In this document: positions 5,994 to 36,070 of the stretch, one piece after another | How the letters are laid out: each line of letters begins with the position of its first letter | How positions within the stretch are numbered: the stretch's first letter is position 1 | Origin: a virus | UHGV virus genome: UHGV-1545242 | Length of the DNA stretch: 38,625 nucleotides | Direction: 5' to 3' (one strand) | The notes under the pieces: generated by a model | Told to the model about the DNA's origin: nothing | What the model saw: only the letters and a program-made list of their open reading frames with translations | The model's database searches: none | Position numbers and translations under genes: made by a program

Positions 5994-6578
5994 TTATTGT
6001 TTGCTTTTTTCGTTCTGGTTGATGACAAATTCAATGTAACTTTCGATCTTTGCTTTCTCGGTTTCGGGTAACAATGCGTAGCGTGAGCGGTCATAGTTGA
6101 TAGTCGCAGGGTCGTGCGGGTGAATCAGTAGTTCATATCCGTGACGCCCGAATGCGGATGCAACATTCTCCAGGGTGGAAATGGAAACGCTGACCTCATT
6201 GTTTAACAGGCGGCTGATTGTCACCTGGGCGACGCCGGATGCGCGGTGAAGTTTTCCCTGCGTTGAAAGGTCGCGGCTTTCGCTCATCCAGCGTTCCAGG
6301 TTGTGAGCCGCCAGCTGACCAATGTCGCTTGGGCCGACAGGCTGAAAACCTTCCTGAGAAAGCGAGCGATCGATATCAAGCCAGTTACGGGGTTTATTGG
6401 CGGCAGCTTCAATTTTTCGCGCAACCTGGTCGCCGATAACCTTCTTGCCAAGAGCCCAGCGGTTTACCAGATTTGCCTGAGTTCCAAGTTTTTCTGCCAT
6501 CCGCGTCTGAACACCATTGAATTCACGGTCGATCAAGTCGTTGAGATTTTGCCTGCGGACGTCCTGGATACTTTTCAT
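5994..6578 (-). CDS. Prophage repressor (CI-like position), HTH DNA-binding protein without S24 peptidase domain
   Basis: Divergent from Cro-like gene; two HTH-like segments (MAEKLGTQANLVNRW; GVAQVTISRLLNNE); no Ala-Gly/Ser-Lys LexA-like autocleavage motifs seen. Confidence 0.7.
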   Translation of the reverse strand: MKSIQDVRRQNLNDLIDREFNGVQTRMAEKLGTQANLVNRWALGKKVIGDQVARKIEAAANKPRNWLDIDRSLSQEGFQPVGPSDIGQLAAHNLERWMSESRDLSTQGKLHRASGVAQVTISRLLNNEVSVSISTLENVASAFGRHGYELLIHPHDPATINYDRSRYALLPETEKAKIESYIEFVINQNEKSKQ

Positions 6579-19823: not shown

Positions 19824-20261
19824 ATGATCACCGACAAACTGTTGATGTTCTCCGAAGCTCAGGCGGTTACGAATACCGCGGCTTCTACTGACGTAATCGA
19901 TCTCGGTCCAATTGATGGAAACCGTCGCGATATCGGCGTGGGTTATCCGCTTGAGTTTTGGGGGCTGGTTAACGAAGCCGCCACGGCAAGTGGTGAGGCA
20001 ACTGTAAACATCCAGTTGCAGACGAGTGAGAATAACAGCTCATGGTCCACTATTTATGATAGTGGCGCACTGGCAAAGGCCACCCTGACAGCAGGTAAGC
20101 GAGTTGTTTCTGCAAAGGTGCCAGCCGGTGTTCAGCGATATCTGCGTGTTAACTACTCCGTCGCAACTGGCCCACTAACGGCTGGCAAATTCACTGCGGG
20201 TATCAATCTTGATGTTGATGCCAATACGCCGTATCCGATCCGCTCAAAAGTAACTGGTTAA
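19824..20261 (+). CDS. Virion structural protein (possible capsid decoration)
   Basis: 145-aa ORF immediately after capsid gene. Confidence 0.5.
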   Translation: MITDKLLMFSEAQAVTNTAASTDVIDLGPIDGNRRDIGVGYPLEFWGLVNEAATASGEATVNIQLQTSENNSSWSTIYDSGALAKATLTAGKRVVSAKVPAGVQRYLRVNYSVATGPLTAGKFTAGINLDVDANTPYPIRSKVTG

Positions 20262-29390: not shown

Positions 29391-31865
29391 ATGAGACAGG
29401 AATGTATACAAGCGGTCCAGCAGGCGGCGCAGCGCACGTTAACGGCGCGAGAAATACAGAACATTGAAGACCGCATTTATCGAAATATGCGCTCCATTGC
29501 TCGTGATGACCCGATGTCGTGGCGACAACTTTCCGAATCAGAACGGTTGTATCGTGCAGCACAATTGGCATCTGAAGAATTACAGCGAGAAGCGACATTA
29601 AAGAAACGTCGTGTGGCTCTCACTATAGCCGCACGTCAGAGATTGGATAAATTTATCAATAGCTATCAAGGGGCTGATGGGAAACTTGGCGCTCTTAACC
29701 GTACTATTGCTTTTAATGCAGACGGTAAATCGAATTTCCTCTCTGTTGAATCCAGAACAAAAGCCACTCGTGATTATGCATTGAGTCAATTGCAGGAGGC
29801 ATTTGAAGCAGTTGATCCTCGCTTTTTTGGCCTGTTTGAAGATGAAGCGGGCGTGCGTGATCTGGTATATGAAATGCGAGGGCAAAATACTGGCAATGCT
29901 AAAGCAAGAAAAGGTGCTAAGGCGTGGAGAGAAGTGACAGAGCTACTGCGCCGCCGGTTTAATGATGCTGGTGGTGACATTGGCTATCTCGAAAACTGGG
30001 GGATCCCTCAACATCATTCTATGGAAAAGGTTGGGGCGGTATCAAAGGATAAGTGGGTTAGCGATATTATAGGTAAGCTGGATCGCAAATATTATACTCG
30101 AGCCGATGGACAACTGATGAACGATGCCGAGTTGTCTGCATTTCTTGGAGAATCTTATAACACAATCGCCACTGGTGGGCTGAATAAGCTTACTGATACC
30201 GGCATGCGAATTTCCGGCGCACGTGCTAATCGTGGTAATGCATCACGACAGATACATTTCAAAGATGCAGATTCCTATCTGCAATATCAGCAACTTTATG
30301 GCGATCGCTCTCTATGGGAAGTCATGGTCGGTCACCTGGAAGGTATCAGTAAAGATATTGCACTGGTGGAAACATATGGCCCAAACCCCGATCATGTTTT
30401 CCGCTCCCTTCTTGATCAGGTGAAGGCAGAAACGGCAACAGCTAACCCGAGTAAAACCGGTAGCGTCGAGCGCCTGGCGAACAACACAGAGAATCTGTAC
30501 AACTTTATTTCAGGAAAGACACAGCCTGTAGCGAATCCGCACATCGCGCGCTGGTCTGACAATATCCGCAATTGGCTGGTTGCCAGCCGACTCGGATCCG
30601 CGTTGCTGTCATCGTTCTCTGATCTTGGAACCATGTATCTGTCTGCGAAGGTGACCAACCTTCCAATGAACCAGTTATTCCGCAACCAGCTTGAAGCTAT
30701 GGACCCAACGAACCGGACTGAGCTTGCGCGGGCGCGCCGCGCTGGTCTGGCGATGGAATCTCTACTTGGCAGCGTTAACCGCTGGGCGATGGATAATATG
30801 GGGCCGTCAGTGTCTCGTTGGGCGGCAACGGCGGTAATGCGTGCCAGTGGGCTTACAGCATGGTCAGATGCGCACAAGCGCGCCTATGGCGTAACCATGA
30901 TGGGAAGCCTGGGAGAAGTAGTGTCACGGACACCAGACCTTCGTAGCCTCGATGACTCTGATTTTCGTATCCTGAAAAGCAAAGGGATTACTGACACAGA
31001 CTGGAGCGTATGGAAGCTGGCGCAACAGGAGGACTGGGGGAACGGTAATAATACGATGCTGACACCGGAAAGCATTATGCGTATCCCTGATTCAGCAGTT
31101 AAACATCTTGGTGAGCCTGAACGCGTGAAATTTGAGGCAATGCGTAAACTGCTCGGTGCCGTAACTGAAGAAGTTGATATGGCTGTTATTACACCGGGAG
31201 CACGTGAGCAACTGATAACCGGTTCTGGTATTCAGCGTGGAACATGGAAAGGTGAATTAACGAGAAGTGTTTTCCTGTTTAAATCGTTCCCTATCTCGGT
31301 TGTTATGCGTCACTGGTCACGCGCTATGGGTATGCCGTCTGCTGGTGGGCGTGCGGCATATATTGCGACGTTTATTGCCAGTACGACCATTCTTGGCGCT
31401 TTGTCGCAGCAACTTAACGACCTTGCGTCTGGTCGTAATCCTCGAGAGATGACAGGAGAAGATGCCGCAAAATTCTGGCTTGGTGCTCTACTGAAAGGTG
31501 GTGGTCTTGGCCTTTACGGTGACTTTTTATTGTCAGATCACACTAGGTACGGAAGCGGCGCGCTGGCGTCGATGCTTGGCCCGGTAGCTGGTCTGGTTGA
31601 TGACGTAGTGAAGATTGCTCAGGGCATACCGTTAAATGCTGTGGAAGGGAAGAGTGAGCAGACTGGTGGTGATCTGGTGAAGCTGGGGAAAGGTTTGATG
31701 CCAGGTGCGAATCTCTGGTACTTGAAGGCGGCTCTCGATCACATGATCTTTAACCAGATGCAGGAGTATTTTTCACCTGGCTATTTGCGTAAAATGGAGC
31801 AACGTTCGAAGAAAGAGTTTAACCAGACATACTGGTGGCGACCACAGGATGTCACTCCGCAATAA
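29391..31865 (+). CDS. Internal virion/ejection protein (largest)
   Basis: 824-aa ORF, last of three consecutive large genes before tailspike. Confidence 0.55.
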   Translation: MRQECIQAVQQAAQRTLTAREIQNIEDRIYRNMRSIARDDPMSWRQLSESERLYRAAQLASEELQREATLKKRRVALTIAARQRLDKFINSYQGADGKLGALNRTIAFNADGKSNFLSVESRTKATRDYALSQLQEAFEAVDPRFFGLFEDEAGVRDLVYEMRGQNTGNAKARKGAKAWREVTELLRRRFNDAGGDIGYLENWGIPQHHSMEKVGAVSKDKWVSDIIGKLDRKYYTRADGQLMNDAELSAFLGESYNTIATGGLNKLTDTGMRISGARANRGNASRQIHFKDADSYLQYQQLYGDRSLWEVMVGHLEGISKDIALVETYGPNPDHVFRSLLDQVKAETATANPSKTGSVERLANNTENLYNFISGKTQPVANPHIARWSDNIRNWLVASRLGSALLSSFSDLGTMYLSAKVTNLPMNQLFRNQLEAMDPTNRTELARARRAGLAMESLLGSVNRWAMDNMGPSVSRWAATAVMRASGLTAWSDAHKRAYGVTMMGSLGEVVSRTPDLRSLDDSDFRILKSKGITDTDWSVWKLAQQEDWGNGNNTMLTPESIMRIPDSAVKHLGEPERVKFEAMRKLLGAVTEEVDMAVITPGAREQLITGSGIQRGTWKGELTRSVFLFKSFPISVVMRHWSRAMGMPSAGGRAAYIATFIASTTILGALSQQLNDLASGRNPREMTGEDAAKFWLGALLKGGGLGLYGDFLLSDHTRYGSGALASMLGPVAGLVDDVVKIAQGIPLNAVEGKSEQTGGDLVKLGKGLMPGANLWYLKAALDHMIFNQMQEYFSPGYLRKMEQRSKKEFNQTYWWRPQDVTPQ

Positions 31866-31873
31866 AAGGAGAT

Positions 31874-31999
31874 ATGATGGTTCAAATAACTTTTATTGTA
31901 CTAATATGTGCAGCGTTTTTATGCTATTCATACATTTTGATAAAAATGGGTTTCAATTGGAACCTCTGTTGCGTGCAGCGGCATGGTTCGGCTTTGTAG
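31874..31999 (+). CDS. Small hydrophobic membrane peptide (41 aa), moron
   Basis: AAGGAG SD then ATGATG; manual translation MMVQITFIVLICAAFLCYSYILIKMGFNWNLCCVQRHGSAL; AT-rich context. Confidence 0.35.
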   Translation: MMVQITFIVLICAAFLCYSYILIKMGFNWNLCCVQRHGSAL

Positions 32000-32084
32000 T
32001 ATTCGGAATTGTATTGTTCGGAAGAATAATAAAATAACTAGTTAATTTGTGGATTGGTGCTGTTTTTCCATGATAGGGGTAATT

Positions 32085-32465
32085 ATGAGAAAAGTATTTT
32101 TGATTTTTGGATTTATGCTTCTCGTTGGATGCCAGTCAGCTGCACAGTTTGAAAGAAATATGCTTACGTGGCGCGGGCAGAGTATAGACGCAATGGTTCA
32201 GCAGTGGGGGTATCCTCAGGGAGAGCTTACATCTCCAGATGGAAACAGAGTGTATGTTTACTCAAGCTCTGGTAGTTATAACGTACCACAAACCACAACG
32301 TATAATACTACGTCTAATCTAATTGGTAATACTATATATTCAAACACATACGCAACAACTGATGGCGGTTATACACTCCATTTCAGTTGCTCTGTTTACG
32401 TTGAGTTTGGTGCTGATAAGATTATTAAAAATGTTACATGGCGCGGTAATAATTGCGTTGCGTGA
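32085..32465 (+). CDS. Outer-membrane lipoprotein (moron), candidate superinfection-exclusion factor
   Basis: Signal peptide with lipobox MRKVFLIFGFMLLVGC, +2 residue Gln; Thr/Ser/Tyr/Asn-rich mature part with two C-terminal Cys; AT-rich. Confidence 0.65.
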   Translation: MRKVFLIFGFMLLVGCQSAAQFERNMLTWRGQSIDAMVQQWGYPQGELTSPDGNRVYVYSSSGSYNVPQTTTYNTTSNLIGNTIYSNTYATTDGGYTLHFSCSVYVEFGADKIIKNVTWRGNNCVA

Positions 32466-32473
32466 CATGTCAC

Positions 32474-32496
32474 AGGCCGCTTTCGCGGCCTTTAAA
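32474..32496 (+). terminator. Terminator hairpin between convergent moron genes
   Basis: AGGCCGC-tttc-GCGGCCT followed by TTTAAATTT. Confidence 0.55.
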
Positions 32497-32497
32497 T

Positions 32498-32755
32498 TTA
32501 CCGGGTTTGTTTTCGTAATTGTTCGGCACAATAGTCGAGATGTGTTTGCAGATCCTGCATAGACATCTGTGAGCTGGTGACGTAGTTAATCAATGCAGTC
32601 AGTTCGGCAAGTGGGCCATCGACATTAAATCCATCCTTATCGAGATCCCGGAGTAATTTCATCAAGTGCGATCCCTCCACCAGTGACCTGACGCCTCCCG
32701 GCGTGTGAATCCTTTCGGTAAATCCGTCTTCCAGTGGATAGTGATACTGCTGCAT
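32498..32755 (-). CDS. Hypothetical 85-aa protein, convergent to lipoprotein and divergent from tailspike
   Basis: Minus-strand ORF open in AT-rich DNA; ATG at 32755 preceded by GGAGAAG; ORF track shows a longer 126-aa extension. Confidence 0.5.
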   Translation of the reverse strand: MQQYHYPLEDGFTERIHTPGGVRSLVEGSHLMKLLRDLDKDGFNVDGPLAELTALINYVTSSQMSMQDLQTHLDYCAEQLRKQTR

Positions 32756-32821
32756 CTTATCTTCTCCATGCAATAACTGTATATTTATACAGTAGCAAAT
32801 AATTTGTTTGCTATCCAGCAC

Positions 32822-32836
32822 GTTTTGCAAATTACC
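32822..32836. promoter_or_regulatory. Operator-like palindrome TTACC-N5-GGTAA in divergent region upstream of tailspike
   Basis: ttacctgaaaggtaa; followed by atctattcgta, also seen at 7011-7021. Confidence 0.55.
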
Positions 32837-32950
32837 TGAAAGGTAATATCTATTCGTATTTACAGTCTTTCTATCCATATGTGGTTTTCCAGGTAATAGA
32901 ATAACCAGATATGCGGCGCAACGGGTGCTGCGACTATCTGGAGATTTAAC

Positions 32951-35900
32951 ATGACGGTCTCAACCGAAGTTGACCACAACGAATACACCGGTAACGGCGT
33001 TACGACATCGTTTCCGTATACTTTTCGAATTTTCAGAAAATCAGACCTGGTTGTTCAGGTGTCTGACCTGAACGGAAACGTAACAGAATTGGTTCTGGAT
33101 ACCGGTTATACGGTAACTGGGGCGGGCACTTATAGTGGCGGTTCTGTGGTTCTTCCGTCTCCGCTTGCTACTGGATGGCGAATTACGATAGATCGTGTGC
33201 TTGATGTAGTGCAGGAGACAGACCTTCGCAATCAGGGAAAATTTTTCCCCGAAGTGCATGAAGATGCCTTTGACTACCTGACGATGCTGATCCAGCAATG
33301 TTTTGGGTGGTTCAGACGTGCATTGATGAAACCATCTTTGCTTGCAAAATATTACGATGCAAAGCAAAACAAAATTTCTAACCTTGCAGATCCATCATTT
33401 GAGCAGGACGCTGTAAATAATCGCTCAATGCGTAATTATGTCGATGCTGCAATCGCCGGGGTTGTTGGTGGTTTTGGTTGGTTTATTCAGTATGGTTCTG
33501 GGGCTGTGTACCGAACGTTCCAGGATAAAATGCGTGATGCTATTAGCCCCAAAGATTTTGGAGCTGTTGGTGATGGTATAAATGACGATTCCACTGCAAT
33601 AAGCGCGTGCCTTGAAGCCTCATCTCCAGGTTATAAAATTGACGGATTAGGGCTTACTTTTAAAGTATCAACTCTTCCGGATGTCAGTCGATTTAAAAAT
33701 GCTCGTTTTTTATTTGAGAGAATACCGGGCCAGCCTCTTTTTTATGCTTCTGAAGATTTTATCCAGGGAGAGTTATTTAAAATTACAGATACACCGTGGT
33801 ACAACGCCTGGACGCAGGATAAAACGTTTGTATATGACAATGTCATCTATGCGCCTTTTATGGCTGGAGACCGCCATGGTGTAAATAACCTCCATGTTGC
33901 ATGGGTTCGCTCAGGAGATGACGGGAAGACCTGGACAACGCCGGAATGGCTTACAGATTTACATGAAAACTATCCCACAGTTAACTATCACTGCATGAGT
34001 ATGGGGGTTGTCAGAAATCGCCTTTTTGCTGTAATTGAGACGCGGACCGTGAGAGGAAATAAACTGCAGGTTGCAGAGTTGTGGGATCGCCCAATGAGTC
34101 GCAGCCTTCGCGTTTATGGTGGTATAACGAAAGCAGCAAATCAGCAAGTCGCTTATATTCGCATTACTGATCACGGATTATTTGCTGGTGATTTTGTCAA
34201 CTTCTCAAACTCTGGTGTTACAGGTGTTACCGGGAATATGACGGTGACTACTGTTATTGATAAAAATACCTTTACAGTTACGACGCAAAATACCCAGGAT
34301 GTGGATCAGAATAACGAGGGTAGATACTGGAGTTTTGGCACATCATTTCACTCGTCACCATGGAGAAAAACCAGTCTTGGAACTATTCCTTCTTTTGTTG
34401 ACGGAAGCACTCCTGTTACTGAGATTCACAGTTTTGCGACGATTAGCGATAACAGTTTTGCTGTTGGCTACCATAATGGTGATATTGGTCCACGCGAGCT
34501 TGGGATACTCTATTTCTCTGATGCTTTCGGTTCTCCTGGTAGCTTTGTTCGCAGACGCATACCTGTAGAATATGAGGCGAATGCATCTGAGCCATGTGTA
34601 AAATATTATGATGGCATTCTGTATCTGACGACCAGGGGGACATTAAGTACTCAACCCGGTAGTTCATTGCACAGAAGCTCTGATTTAGGTACATCATGGA
34701 ATTCTCTTCGCTTCCCAAATAATGTTCATCACTCAAACCTTCCTTTTGCCAAAGTTGGCGATGAGCTGATTATTTTTGGCAGTGAGCGCGCATTTGGTGA
34801 GTGGGAAGGAGGAGAACCTGATAACCGTTATGCAGGAAATTATCCAAGAACATTTATGACCAGAGTTAACGTCAATGAGTGGAGTCTGGATAATGTAGAG
34901 TGGGTTAATGTTACTGATCAGATTTATCAGGGCGGAATAGTTAACTCTGCGGTTGGTGTTGGTTCAGTTTGTATCAAAGACAACTGGCTGTACTACATTT
35001 TCGGTGGGGAAGACTTTCTAAACCCATGGAGCATAGGGGATAACAACAGAAAATATCCTTATGTTCACGATGGTCACCCGGCTGATTTGTATTGTTTCAG
35101 GGTGAAAATTAAACAGGAAGAATTTGTTTCAAGGGATTTTGTCTACGGAGCCACTCCTAACAGAACGCTTCCTACTTTTATGTCGACGTCAGGCGTGAGG
35201 ACGGTTCCTGTACCCGTTGATTTCACAGATGATGTTGCCGTCCAGTCACTGACTGTCCATGCAGGTACATCAGGACAAGTTCGCGCGGAAGTCAAACTTG
35301 AGGGTAATTACGCCATTATTGCGAAGAAAGTACCGTCTGATGATGTTACCGCTCAGAGATTAATCGTTAGCGGCGGTGAAACAACGTCTTCAGCAGATGG
35401 TGCAATGATAACGTTGCATGGTTCCGGAAGCAGTACTCCACGTCGCGCGGTATATAACGCACTCGAACATCTTTTTGAGAACGGAGATGTTAAACCTTAT
35501 CTTGATAATGTAAATGCTCTTGGTGGTCCGGGAAACAGGTTCTCGACAGTTTATCTTGGCTCCAATCCTGTGGTTACCAGTGACGGAACATTAAAGACAG
35601 AGCCGGTCTCTCCTGACGAAGCATTGCTGGATGCCTGGGGTGACGTCAGGTATATCGCTTATAAATGGCTGAACGCTGTCGCTATAAAGGGGGAAGAAGG
35701 GGCGAGGATACATCATGGTGTAATCGCGCAGCAACTTCGTGATGTTCTTATTTCTCACGGACTCATGGAAGAAGAAAGCACAACATGCCGCTATGCCTTT
35801 CTTTGCTATGACGATTATCCCGCAGTATATGATGACGTCATTACTGGCCAAAGGGAAATGCCGCTGACTGATAATGACGGGAGCATCATTGTTGATGAGG

Positions 35901-36070
35901 ATGATAATCCAGTGATGGTAATAGAAGACATCATTGAGCGCGTTGAAATAACGCCAGCAGGATCTAGATGGGGGGTCAGACCTGATCTCTTATTCTATAT
36001 CGAGGCAGCATGGCAGCGCAGAGAAATGGATAAGATAAAAGAGCGGGTTCAGTCTCTGGAAGAACGTTAA
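32951..36070 (+). CDS. Tailspike/depolymerase with C-terminal intramolecular chaperone (S74-type) domain
   Basis: 1039 aa; conserved N-terminal virion-attachment region; central DFGAVGDGINDDSTAI beta-helix start motif; C-terminal TSDGTLK...YIAYKW...RIHHGVIAQQL pattern. Confidence 0.85.
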   Translation: MTVSTEVDHNEYTGNGVTTSFPYTFRIFRKSDLVVQVSDLNGNVTELVLDTGYTVTGAGTYSGGSVVLPSPLATGWRITIDRVLDVVQETDLRNQGKFFPEVHEDAFDYLTMLIQQCFGWFRRALMKPSLLAKYYDAKQNKISNLADPSFEQDAVNNRSMRNYVDAAIAGVVGGFGWFIQYGSGAVYRTFQDKMRDAISPKDFGAVGDGINDDSTAISACLEASSPGYKIDGLGLTFKVSTLPDVSRFKNARFLFERIPGQPLFYASEDFIQGELFKITDTPWYNAWTQDKTFVYDNVIYAPFMAGDRHGVNNLHVAWVRSGDDGKTWTTPEWLTDLHENYPTVNYHCMSMGVVRNRLFAVIETRTVRGNKLQVAELWDRPMSRSLRVYGGITKAANQQVAYIRITDHGLFAGDFVNFSNSGVTGVTGNMTVTTVIDKNTFTVTTQNTQDVDQNNEGRYWSFGTSFHSSPWRKTSLGTIPSFVDGSTPVTEIHSFATISDNSFAVGYHNGDIGPRELGILYFSDAFGSPGSFVRRRIPVEYEANASEPCVKYYDGILYLTTRGTLSTQPGSSLHRSSDLGTSWNSLRFPNNVHHSNLPFAKVGDELIIFGSERAFGEWEGGEPDNRYAGNYPRTFMTRVNVNEWSLDNVEWVNVTDQIYQGGIVNSAVGVGSVCIKDNWLYYIFGGEDFLNPWSIGDNNRKYPYVHDGHPADLYCFRVKIKQEEFVSRDFVYGATPNRTLPTFMSTSGVRTVPVPVDFTDDVAVQSLTVHAGTSGQVRAEVKLEGNYAIIAKKVPSDDVTAQRLIVSGGETTSSADGAMITLHGSGSSTPRRAVYNALEHLFENGDVKPYLDNVNALGGPGNRFSTVYLGSNPVVTSDGTLKTEPVSPDEALLDAWGDVRYIAYKWLNAVAIKGEEGARIHHGVIAQQLRDVLISHGLMEEESTTCRYAFLCYDDYPAVYDDVITGQREMPLTDNDGSIIVDEDDNPVMVIEDIIERVEITPAGSRWGVRPDLLFYIEAAWQRREMDKIKERVQSLEER

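Follow-up and report, generated by a model that had tools for sequence, protein, structure and literature searches.

In the Salmonella phage SPC32H, whose Ant/Rep pair (PDB 5D50) is the closest described counterpart of the switch analysed here, a tetramer of the antirepressor Ant engages two dimers of the repressor Rep and breaks the DNA-binding Rep tetramer (PMC9638917); Ant production follows self-cleavage of the host repressor LexA (PMC7380047, citing Kim and Ryu 2013). Coliphage 186 Tum and the Gifsy and Fels-2 antirepressors obey the same logic, in which the phage repressor resists cleavage by RecA and is put out of action by a small protein under LexA repression (PMC7380047). Here we analyse a stretch of 38,625 nucleotides, the virus genome UHGV-1545242 (hereafter the window), and within it the region 31866-32950 ahead of the tailspike gene, which codes for an Ant homologue, a lipoprotein and a short hydrophobic peptide. 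The SPC32H antirepression system is reported by Kim and Ryu in 2013 (J Virol 87:11775) and by Kim et al. in 2016 (PNAS 113:E2480); according to the abstract of the former, SPC32N reportedly differs from SPC32H by a point mutation that hits the LexA site in the promoter of ant and renders Ant production constitutive. The short-tailed temperate phage P22 has the gene order gene 16, sieA, mnt, arc, ant, gene 9. Its immI/sieA region shares with the window the slot between the last ejection-protein gene and the tailspike gene, and both slots hold a membrane protein gene together with an antirepressor gene. The proteins are not homologous, however, P22 ant is under the control of Mnt and Arc and not of LexA, and the window has an outer-membrane-type lipoprotein and a broken inner-membrane hairpin gene. 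Llp of T5 and Cor of phi80 and N15 offer another comparison, being small phage lipoproteins that are predicted to lie in the inner leaflet of the outer membrane and are encoded near the gene of a receptor-binding protein; Llp is described as a small lipoprotein of that leaflet that binds FhuA.

In our reading the region joins the late structural operon, which ends here, to the tailspike gene, and this junction holds three unrelated things: the ant switch, a decayed membrane-protein gene and a mobile lipoprotein gene. To this explanation as a whole we assign a probability of roughly 0.7. The sequence is that of an epsilon15/phiV10-like podophage, a Uetakevirus, whose tailspike is a K1 endosialidase. 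DNA around the region matches Uetakeviruses, the temperate podophages of the epsilon15/phiV10 group, at 75-99% identity, and the nearest relatives are phage vB_EcoP_ZX5 (ZX5) and prophages of K1 extraintestinal E. coli (APEC O1, CE10, IAI39). An AT-richer stretch does precede the tailspike gene, as an earlier, sequence-only reading of the window had pointed out: the fraction of G plus C (GC) is 0.34 over 31866-32084 and 0.40 in the lipoprotein gene; the corresponding figures are 0.50 in the 824-codon gene upstream and 0.49 across the full window. Every feature named in that reading (open reading frames, Shine-Dalgarno sequence, lipobox, hairpin and both palindromes) was found in place. The features are collected in Table 1.

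Table 1. Coordinates of the genes and sites at the junction ahead of the tailspike gene, with the repressor gene and both flanking genes.
Feature	Position	Strand	Basis or remark
824-residue large internal/ejection-type virion protein gene, last of its kind	29391-31865	+	Homologue of epsilon15 gp17 / phiV10p20
Frameshifted remnant of a gene for a 54-residue two-transmembrane-helix hairpin protein	31874-32037	+	Intact homologues, DNA alignment
126-residue lipoprotein gene, AT-rich mobile accessory	32085-32465	+	Lipobox LVG/C16, Gln at +2; phrog_3716
Palindrome GTGACATGTCAC (32462-32473) and terminator hairpin AGGCCGC-TTTC-GCGGCCT (32474-32491)	32462-32491	.	T-rich TTTAAATTT tail on + strand
ant, 85-residue antirepressor; Shine-Dalgarno GGAG 32764-32767	32498-32755	-	PDB 5D50_E, syntenic 'ant' annotation, phrog_450
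LexA SOS box, TACTGTATAAATATACAGTT on the ant strand	32775-32794	.	Matches 18/20 of the E. coli consensus TACTGTATATATATACAGTA
Inferred ant promoter: -35 TGGATA (32817-32812), 17-nucleotide variable spacer, -10 TACTGT (32794-32789)	32789-32817	-	Conservation pattern
TAGCAAA-N7-TTTGCTA palindrome (TAGCAAATAATTTGTTTGCTA)	32793-32813	.	E. coli-phage lineage only
ATTACC-N5-GGTAAT palindrome, between the divergent ant and tailspike promoters	32831-32847	.	Putative Rep operator
Inferred tailspike promoter TCCATA-17-TAGAAT (32874-32902) and leader hairpin (32899-32947)	32874-32947	+	Conserved block
Tailspike gene: K1 endosialidase catalytic module and conserved Uetakevirus N-terminal adaptor	32951-36070	+	Pfam End_beta_propel, E 1.7e-232
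rep, 194-residue repressor, Ant target	5994-6578	-	PDB 5D50_A 'Repressor', E 3.5e-42, full-length alignment

The sequence-only reading had correctly placed a convergent 85-residue open reading frame on the minus strand and had found none of the proteins of the region assignable, which turned out to be wrong for this one. A sequence search of solved structures returned a single match, chain E of 5D50, 'Anti-repressor protein' (E 4.1e-47), with 73 of 83 residues (88%) identical; tblastn gave 88% identity to 'ant' of SPC32H, and the syntenic gene is annotated ant in the GenBank records of both SPC32H and SPC32N. Pfam, NCBIfam and PADLOC had no matching family, and in PHROGs the protein falls into an unnamed one. 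Homologues occur in 35 phage records, all from phages of Enterobacteriaceae and mostly from Uetakeviruses, and in every locus inspected the gene runs opposite to the structural genes immediately before the tailspike gene. The full layout, with ant on the minus strand, the gp17/gp18-like genes and their terminator on one side and the tailspike gene on the other, is found in SPC32H, epsilon15, phiV10 and BUCT554, and likewise in Salmonella, Klebsiella and Raoultella prophages. The GC of ant, 0.48, equals the phage average. On these alignments the 85-residue protein is an Ant of the SPC32H type, a core lysis-lysogeny switch gene that is present genus-wide.

The repressor that Ant would target is encoded far away in the window, at rep. 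As in SPC32H, it is a homologous helix-turn-helix repressor encoded elsewhere in the genome, and the only Pfam domain found in it is HTH_3, with no Peptidase_S24 autocleavage domain. It is 43% identical to the epsilon15 repressor and about 45% identical (counted from the alignment) to Rep of SPC32H, from which it has diverged far more than Ant has (88%). Position and orientation of ant and the LexA box at its promoter are further points shared with SPC32H. The two phages differ in host, Salmonella there and E. coli K1 here, and in the lipoprotein gene that is inserted here between the small membrane-protein gene and the terminator. The resemblance to 186 Tum and to the Gifsy and Fels-2 antirepressors is one of logic; no sequence relationship to the window Ant was detected, and the genome position differs.

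Control of ant had been ascribed to an operator of its own. What lies upstream is instead a host LexA box, overlooked earlier, and one copy of a phage-wide palindrome. The core of the box, CTGT-N8-ACAG (CTGTATATTTATACAG) at 32777-32792, is 22-37 nucleotides upstream of the ant ATG, and the box is placed between a 21-bp palindrome and the ant ribosome-binding site. We aligned the ant-tailspike intergenic region of 11 phages and prophages (from E. coli, Salmonella, Enterobacter, Klebsiella, Raoultella and one unassigned genome). The box is kept in 8 of the 11, that is, in all whose slice reached and aligned there; the most divergent sequence, L012, was unaligned at this point and was left out together with two slices that end before the right arm. 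Klebsiella BUCT711 has a variant left arm, ATGT. SPC32H and SPC32N (L013 and L029) differ at only two bases over 3.2 kb around ant, at locus positions 1284 and 1471; one difference is in the tailspike gene, and the other, C>A, alters the ACAG arm of the corresponding LexA box upstream of ant. Because that change falls in the homologous box, the window box is tied to an experimentally relevant LexA site. By its sequence, 32775-32794 is a near-consensus LexA site of ant.

The promoter of ant was placed by the conservation pattern of the same alignment, in which a GCTGGATAG block is followed by 17-18 variable nucleotides and then by a conserved TACTGTAT. The resulting elements, TGGATA and TACTGT, were not picked up by a consensus promoter scan. 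In this arrangement the -10 element would be the left arm of the LexA box, and LexA would thus cover it. Two other candidates, TTGCAA-17-ACAAAT and TTGCTA-17-TATTGC, were dropped since their -10 elements are not conserved across the alignment. The 21-bp TAGCAAA-N7-TTTGCTA palindrome, which had been proposed as a control site of the gene, is not conserved in the relatives: its left arm is not kept in those from Salmonella, Enterobacter and Klebsiella, and it sits in the variable promoter spacer. The window has one copy of it, and chance alone predicts matches with up to three mismatches (mean 2.0). We rejected it as an operator on the grounds that the left arm is confined to the E. coli-phage lineage and that no similar site exists elsewhere in the window; it probably is not one.

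The other palindrome behaves differently. Across the relatives the arms of ATTACC-N5-GGTAAT are nearly invariant and its spacer is free. With its core TTACCTGAAAGGTAA at 32832-32846, it is one of 12 TTACC-N5-GGTAA copies in the window (at most one mismatch) against 0.58 expected; these 15-bp sites start at 136, 5860, 5922, 6634, 6682, 7019, 8958, 9020, 12653, 12671, 15775 and 32832, and they lie on either side of rep, after a cro-like gene and before the terminase, portal-region and tailspike operons. In the RefSeq record of epsilon15, NC_004775.2, eight copies of this motif in corresponding positions bear the annotation 'protein_bind: repressor', and one of these (19895-19911) is found upstream of gp19, the Ant homologue. 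Rep is the putative binder of this palindrome. The places ahead of the terminase, portal-region and tailspike genes are odd locations for an immunity repressor.

Together these elements suggest how the switch would work. In the lysogen, host LexA bound to the SOS box, which overlaps the ant promoter, would hold ant off; DNA damage would lead to LexA self-cleavage and thereby to Ant synthesis; and Ant would bind the non-cleavable Rep, dismantle its DNA-binding tetramer and turn the prophage lytic. We hold this model, in which LexA represses ant, the SOS response relieves the repression and Ant disassembles Rep, with high confidence. This part of the locus adds an E. coli K1 relative to biology that is already known.

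The lipoprotein gene is the only real accessory gene of the region and no surprise in kind, but it belongs to an uncharacterised family of unusual slot fidelity. The lipobox and the Gln at +2 noted in the sequence-only reading are confirmed (MRKVFLIFGFMLLVGC/QS); a residue other than Asp at +2 fits outer-membrane sorting, and by the +2 rule the protein would localize to the outer membrane. C16 of the lipobox, C102 and C124 are invariant in 18 aligned homologues, and the latter two probably form a disulfide. An AlphaFold2 model (mean predicted local distance difference test score 84) finds its best folds in BamE, OsmE and BLIP-like proteins, with weak Foldseek E-values of 0.2-1 against the PDB, and the protein matches phage SmpA/OmlA lipoproteins; a BamE/OmlA-like fold is predicted. 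Compared with BamE, OsmE, SmpA/OmlA and BLIP-like proteins, its sheet is longer, with six strands, and the C102-C124 pair is an added conserved feature; nor is there any sign of a link to the β-barrel assembly machinery (BAM) complex. Scans of Pfam, NCBIfam, PHROGs and PADLOC returned only the unnamed PHROG family given in Table 1; in Pfam at E up to 1, SmpA_OmlA was unmatched, and beyond a weak match to LPAM_1 there was one to adenylate cyclase, which was taken as noise. An apparent homology to the archaeal surface-layer protein 1l0q (PDB, E 5e-10) was rejected, as it is made up of short repeated 'SPDGxxVYV' matches resembling β-propeller blades, each of them insignificant. Close homologues found by single-sequence search have about 126 residues and all come from Enterobacteriaceae or unassigned metagenomic contigs. 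Profile searches extended the family to 3,726 cluster representatives at E up to 1e-3, for which there is no Pfam model; domain fusions among distant relatives (SHOCT, MORN, SH3) gave no functional clue.

Every close homologue that was looked up (at least 47% identity) lies in the same slot of an epsilon15-like prophage, the carriers being Salmonella, Klebsiella, Raoultella and Proteus prophages and unassigned contigs. Within this slot the lipoprotein, 53-79% identical, accompanies at least five kinds of tailspike (endosialidase, GDSL-esterase, P22-tail, Phage_tail_beta and Tail_spike_N). The Klebsiella copy is 78% identical although the flanking ejection-type proteins are only 28-31% identical, and the Salmonella copy is 68% identical although its neighbour reaches 93.6%. 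In every host the gene has a GC of 0.39-0.41, in loci of 0.46-0.54. Since its similarity is decoupled from that of its neighbours and its GC is constantly low, we regard the gene as a mobile cassette that has been captured repeatedly at one site. Its distribution is patchy, with 4 of 50,697 phage records and 3 of the 35 ant-bearing ones carrying it. Among close relatives it is present in ZX5, Phi05_1387B and APEC O1 and absent from phiV10, PAS61, SPC32H and epsilon15. YDC107_2 was discarded as a carrier, for this record has many frameshifts and its slot holds a different, 98-residue membrane protein. Further afield, the Burkholderia phage vB_E332, one of the four phage records, encodes a distant homologue (L030, 4950-5399; 27.7% identity) with lipobox ALIGC, the sequence LGYPAGE of the LGYPxGE motif and two later cysteines. 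Flanked by the last ejection-type gene and the gene of the tail fibre, it takes the place that ant has in the enterobacterial relatives and runs on the opposite strand. One relative is found beside a transposase in an unidentified bacterium. More distant, non-prophage relatives (L034, L035, L036 and L026; 36-46% identity) belong to small-gene arrays with an IS605-type, rve-type or integrase gene as neighbour, an arrangement which suggests that the lipoprotein family moves as a cassette.

The lipoprotein gene would be transcribed with the late operon, and its transcripts would end at the hairpin 32474-32491. Its start abuts the stop of the ejection-protein gene in L024 (6000/6001), overlaps it as ATGA in L027, L010 and L012 and follows it at +10 in L005, and no convincing or consistent promoter was found for it in the window or in two related loci, in a consensus scan that a weak or non-sigma-70 promoter could escape. 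Because of this tight junction in many relatives and the lack of a detected promoter, co-transcription with the late operon is the most likely arrangement. The terminator behind the gene, seen already in the sequence-only reading, is present with its T-rich tail. It is abutted by the perfect palindrome GTGACATGTCAC, which contains the lipoprotein stop codon, and the palindrome-terminator module is common to the converging plus-strand genes and ant. Behind phiV10p21 stands the same module; a Klebsiella prophage has the palindrome too, and the epsilon15 and phiV10 records both annotate a terminator in the corresponding position. As it is present in relatives that lack the lipoprotein, the terminator belongs to the slot and not to the cassette. 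The palindrome resembles a fixed 3' junction of the variable slot.

Our confidence in any mechanism for the lipoprotein is low overall. We picture a Lol-sorted outer-membrane lipoprotein whose protein-binding, disulfide-stabilised BamE/OmlA-like domain would face the periplasm and act on a conserved envelope component. The fixed position in the lineage indicates that the protein is useful to this kind of phage. Its independence of tailspike type and of ejection-protein sequence, together with its occurrence outside phages, disfavours a receptor-masking or ejection-protein-specific mechanism. Tentatively, and at clearly less than even odds, we favour an envelope factor that binds protein and guards the infected or lysogenic cell from superinfection through a conserved periplasmic or outer-membrane host component, not through the polysaccharide receptor. 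It may even stand for a kind of phage-borne exclusion or immunity factor that is new as a class: anchored in the outer membrane, it would use its disulfide-locked BamE-like domain to bind a conserved periplasmic or outer-membrane component of the host on which epsilon15-like podophages depend for their trans-envelope ejection conduit, or would inhibit the lytic transglycosylase of the ejection proteins; such a class would explain the repeated capture beside ejection genes, from Burkholderia to E. coli phages, and the orphan cassettes of non-phage relatives, but we rate it as rather improbable.

Several points weigh against our account of the switch and of the lipoprotein. The assignment of the ATTACC-N5-GGTAAT palindrome to Rep derives from the epsilon15 annotation, which may itself be a prediction, and the palindrome precedes the two inferred transcription starts by about 57 and 70 bp, which places it outside a core promoter. 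LexA control in SPC32H is taken from the 2013 abstract, the review PMC7380047 and the SPC32H/SPC32N base difference. As to the lipoprotein, the vB_E332 homologue runs opposite to the late genes, so that co-transcription with the late operon is not universal. Relatives exist outside phages, in gene arrays of Vibrio (L034, L035) and Marinobacter (L036), and the role of the protein therefore need not concern phages. The Foldseek matches to the PDB are weak (E 0.2-1), and the PADLOC defence library contained no match. Finally, lysogens of ZX5, a phage near-identical to the window phage, had no growth, stress, biofilm, antibiotic, adhesion or virulence phenotype in a study that concerned the Bro-N antirepressor and not the small Ant; exclusion is not among the lysogen phenotypes listed (PMC9782041).

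A late lytic factor is one alternative to an envelope guard. Made with the virion proteins, the lipoprotein would act at the envelope during assembly or lysis, for instance by preventing progeny from ejecting DNA into debris or infected cells, or by modulating the outer membrane before lysis. We consider this doubtful. A start that abuts or overlaps the stop of the ejection gene in several prophages, the lack of a sigma-70-like promoter in the upstream scan and a ZX5 lysogen without envelope-related phenotype (PMC9782041) are what such a factor would lead one to expect. But a consensus scan says little about promoters, in the Burkholderia phage the homologue runs counter to the late genes, and family members exist outside phages; moreover, the gene is missing from most Uetakeviruses and is hence dispensable for lysis and assembly.

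The lipoprotein might also be cargo that benefits the host, either as an immunity protein or inhibitor directed at a periplasmic enzyme or toxin or as a fitness or virulence factor like lambda Bor. The fold class includes BLIP-like proteins and the type VI secretion system immunity protein BtiO, the domain family is very large (3,726 representatives), the Vibrio and Marinobacter arrays outside phages are cassette-like and lie near integrase or transposase genes, and the E. coli copies reside in K1 extraintestinal strains (APEC O1, CE10, IAI39). That phages of a single type, in hosts as far apart as Burkholderia and Enterobacteriaceae, have the gene time and again in precisely the same slot points to a role in the biology of that phage instead, and ZX5 lysogeny left serum sensitivity, virulence, adhesion and stress tolerance unchanged (PMC9782041). 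A host-directed role seems to us improbable.

The sequence-only reading had likened the lipoprotein to T5 Llp and phi80 Cor, that is, to a masker that binds an outer-membrane protein receptor from the periplasmic side and keeps that same phage from adsorbing or ejecting its DNA. The comparison has its attractions: the lipoprotein is small, of the outer-membrane type and endowed with an extra conserved cysteine pair, its gene is next to that of the tailspike, and Llp is likewise a small inner-leaflet lipoprotein, one that binds FhuA. No similarity in sequence or fold was seen, however, to these proteins or to exclusion lipoproteins of solved structure. What serves this phage as primary receptor is a polysaccharide, which its tailspike cuts, and the lipoprotein is tied to no single type of receptor-binding protein, keeping company as it does with tailspikes of at least five kinds; it is also far better conserved than the adjacent ejection proteins and, at about 110 residues in its mature form against roughly 60, it is larger. 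Receptor masking of this sort is thus unlikely, and we retain the envelope factor as the preferred, if tentative, role of the lipoprotein.

The third component of the junction is the 41-residue hydrophobic peptide. Its open reading frame and strong Shine-Dalgarno sequence (AAGGAG, 31867-31872) exist as first described, but it is a frameshifted fragment and not an intact gene. Frame A, 31874-31999, encodes the peptide with the first helix, and the -1 frame, open to 32037, encodes a clean second helix; in the DNA alignment the window has a single one-nucleotide gap, at about 31934/31935 in a T run. A search with the joined 54-residue protein found intact homologues of 54 (P0038) and 52 (P0039) residues, with 67% identity over 96% of the length, and P0038 occupies the identical slot after an 824-residue gene. 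PGAP calls no gene at the 41-residue frame, and the peptide had no match in Pfam, NCBIfam, PHROGs or PADLOC scans. Judged from these comparisons, it is the front half of a decaying gene broken by a one-nucleotide deletion. ZX5 and Phi05_1387B have this broken allele too, and APEC O1-type prophages are 99.9% identical over the stretch. Relatives have small two-helix membrane genes directly after the gp17-like gene, namely phiV10p21 and SPC32H_019 with 46 residues and epsilon15 gp18 with 64. Once repaired, the window copy agrees with these in slot, size and two-helix hairpin topology, whereas its protein has no obvious sequence similarity to them. The remnant would represent the resident gene of the slot, of the two-helix inner-membrane hairpin kind, disabled here by the deletion. 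Such decay of a small gene is ordinary.

One could suppose that slippage of the ribosome or RNA polymerase at the T/A runs 31934-31945 still yields the full 54-residue protein, as the strong Shine-Dalgarno sequence is kept, the downstream frame is still open with its clean second helix and the allele is widespread, at 99.9% conservation in many E. coli genomes. The high identity of the carriers reflects recent common ancestry, however, and the second frame may simply not have decayed yet; the sequence has no canonical X XXY YYZ slippery heptamer in frame, and a 44-residue variant, P0041, seems to fuse the start of frame A to frame B through an internal deletion, which is further decay. We think slippage very improbable and keep to the decayed gene.

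That the membrane peptide, the lipoprotein and the 85-residue gene form one conversion or exclusion cassette, with the 85-residue protein as its regulator or effector under an operator of its own, is suggested by three adjacent reading frames in AT-richer DNA and by a position like that of the sieA/immI region of P22, but can hardly be maintained when the 85-residue protein is Ant, found in 35 of 35 related phage records with or without the lipoprotein (itself in 3 of the 35), when ant has the GC of the phage average and when control lies with a host LexA box and a phage-wide palindrome, not a private operator. The three-gene arrangement is a juxtaposition, not one new cassette. Of the original view of the region as a moron, what survives is the lipoprotein gene, which is AT-rich, patchy and decoupled from its neighbours. 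The homology and structure searches proposed at that time gave an identity to two of the proteins, Ant and the product of a broken membrane-protein gene, and to the lipoprotein a fold class only. The comparison of related prophages proposed along with them separated a patchy lipoprotein gene from a genus-wide ant.

Some observations concern the surroundings. The gene of the 824-residue protein, which is 93.6% identical to its Salmonella prophage homologue, forms the upstream edge of the variable slot. In APEC O1 (L022, 5167-7247) and ZX5 (L018), extra minus-strand genes separate the lipoprotein gene from ant; those of APEC O1 encode a 53-residue protein, a 210-residue protein and a BRO-N antirepressor-like protein, and all three are missing from the window (compare 32466-32497). 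The direct lipoprotein-ant junction of the window occurs in one piece in none of the complete E. coli genomes of the collection. On the downstream side, the predicted leader hairpin of the tailspike gene (-22.4 kcal/mol, z -5.1) pairs with the tailspike Shine-Dalgarno sequence, and its GC-rich core (GCGCCCGGCGCGC-like) is kept in relatives; the alignment yielded no consensus structure for this leader, and an Rfam scan of 31500-33300 gave a sub-threshold chance match only. The first 150 residues of the tailspike (gene part 32951-33400) are 59-77% identical to the same part of tailspikes of Salmonella, Klebsiella, Raoultella and L012 prophages that bear quite different catalytic modules, a pattern of conserved adaptor and swapped enzymatic heads.

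For the lipoprotein, a sub-branch of a family of several thousand clusters without a Pfam model that keeps to one podophage slot across genera makes a cheap candidate for an exclusion or envelope-protection assay. For the switch, the 85-residue 'hypothetical protein' beside the tailspike in prophages of K1 E. coli and in other Uetakevirus prophages should be named Ant, and 32777-32792 should be annotated as its LexA operator. We predict that such prophages, which are common in extraintestinal E. coli (APEC O1, CE10, IAI39), would be induced via LexA and not via repressor cleavage.

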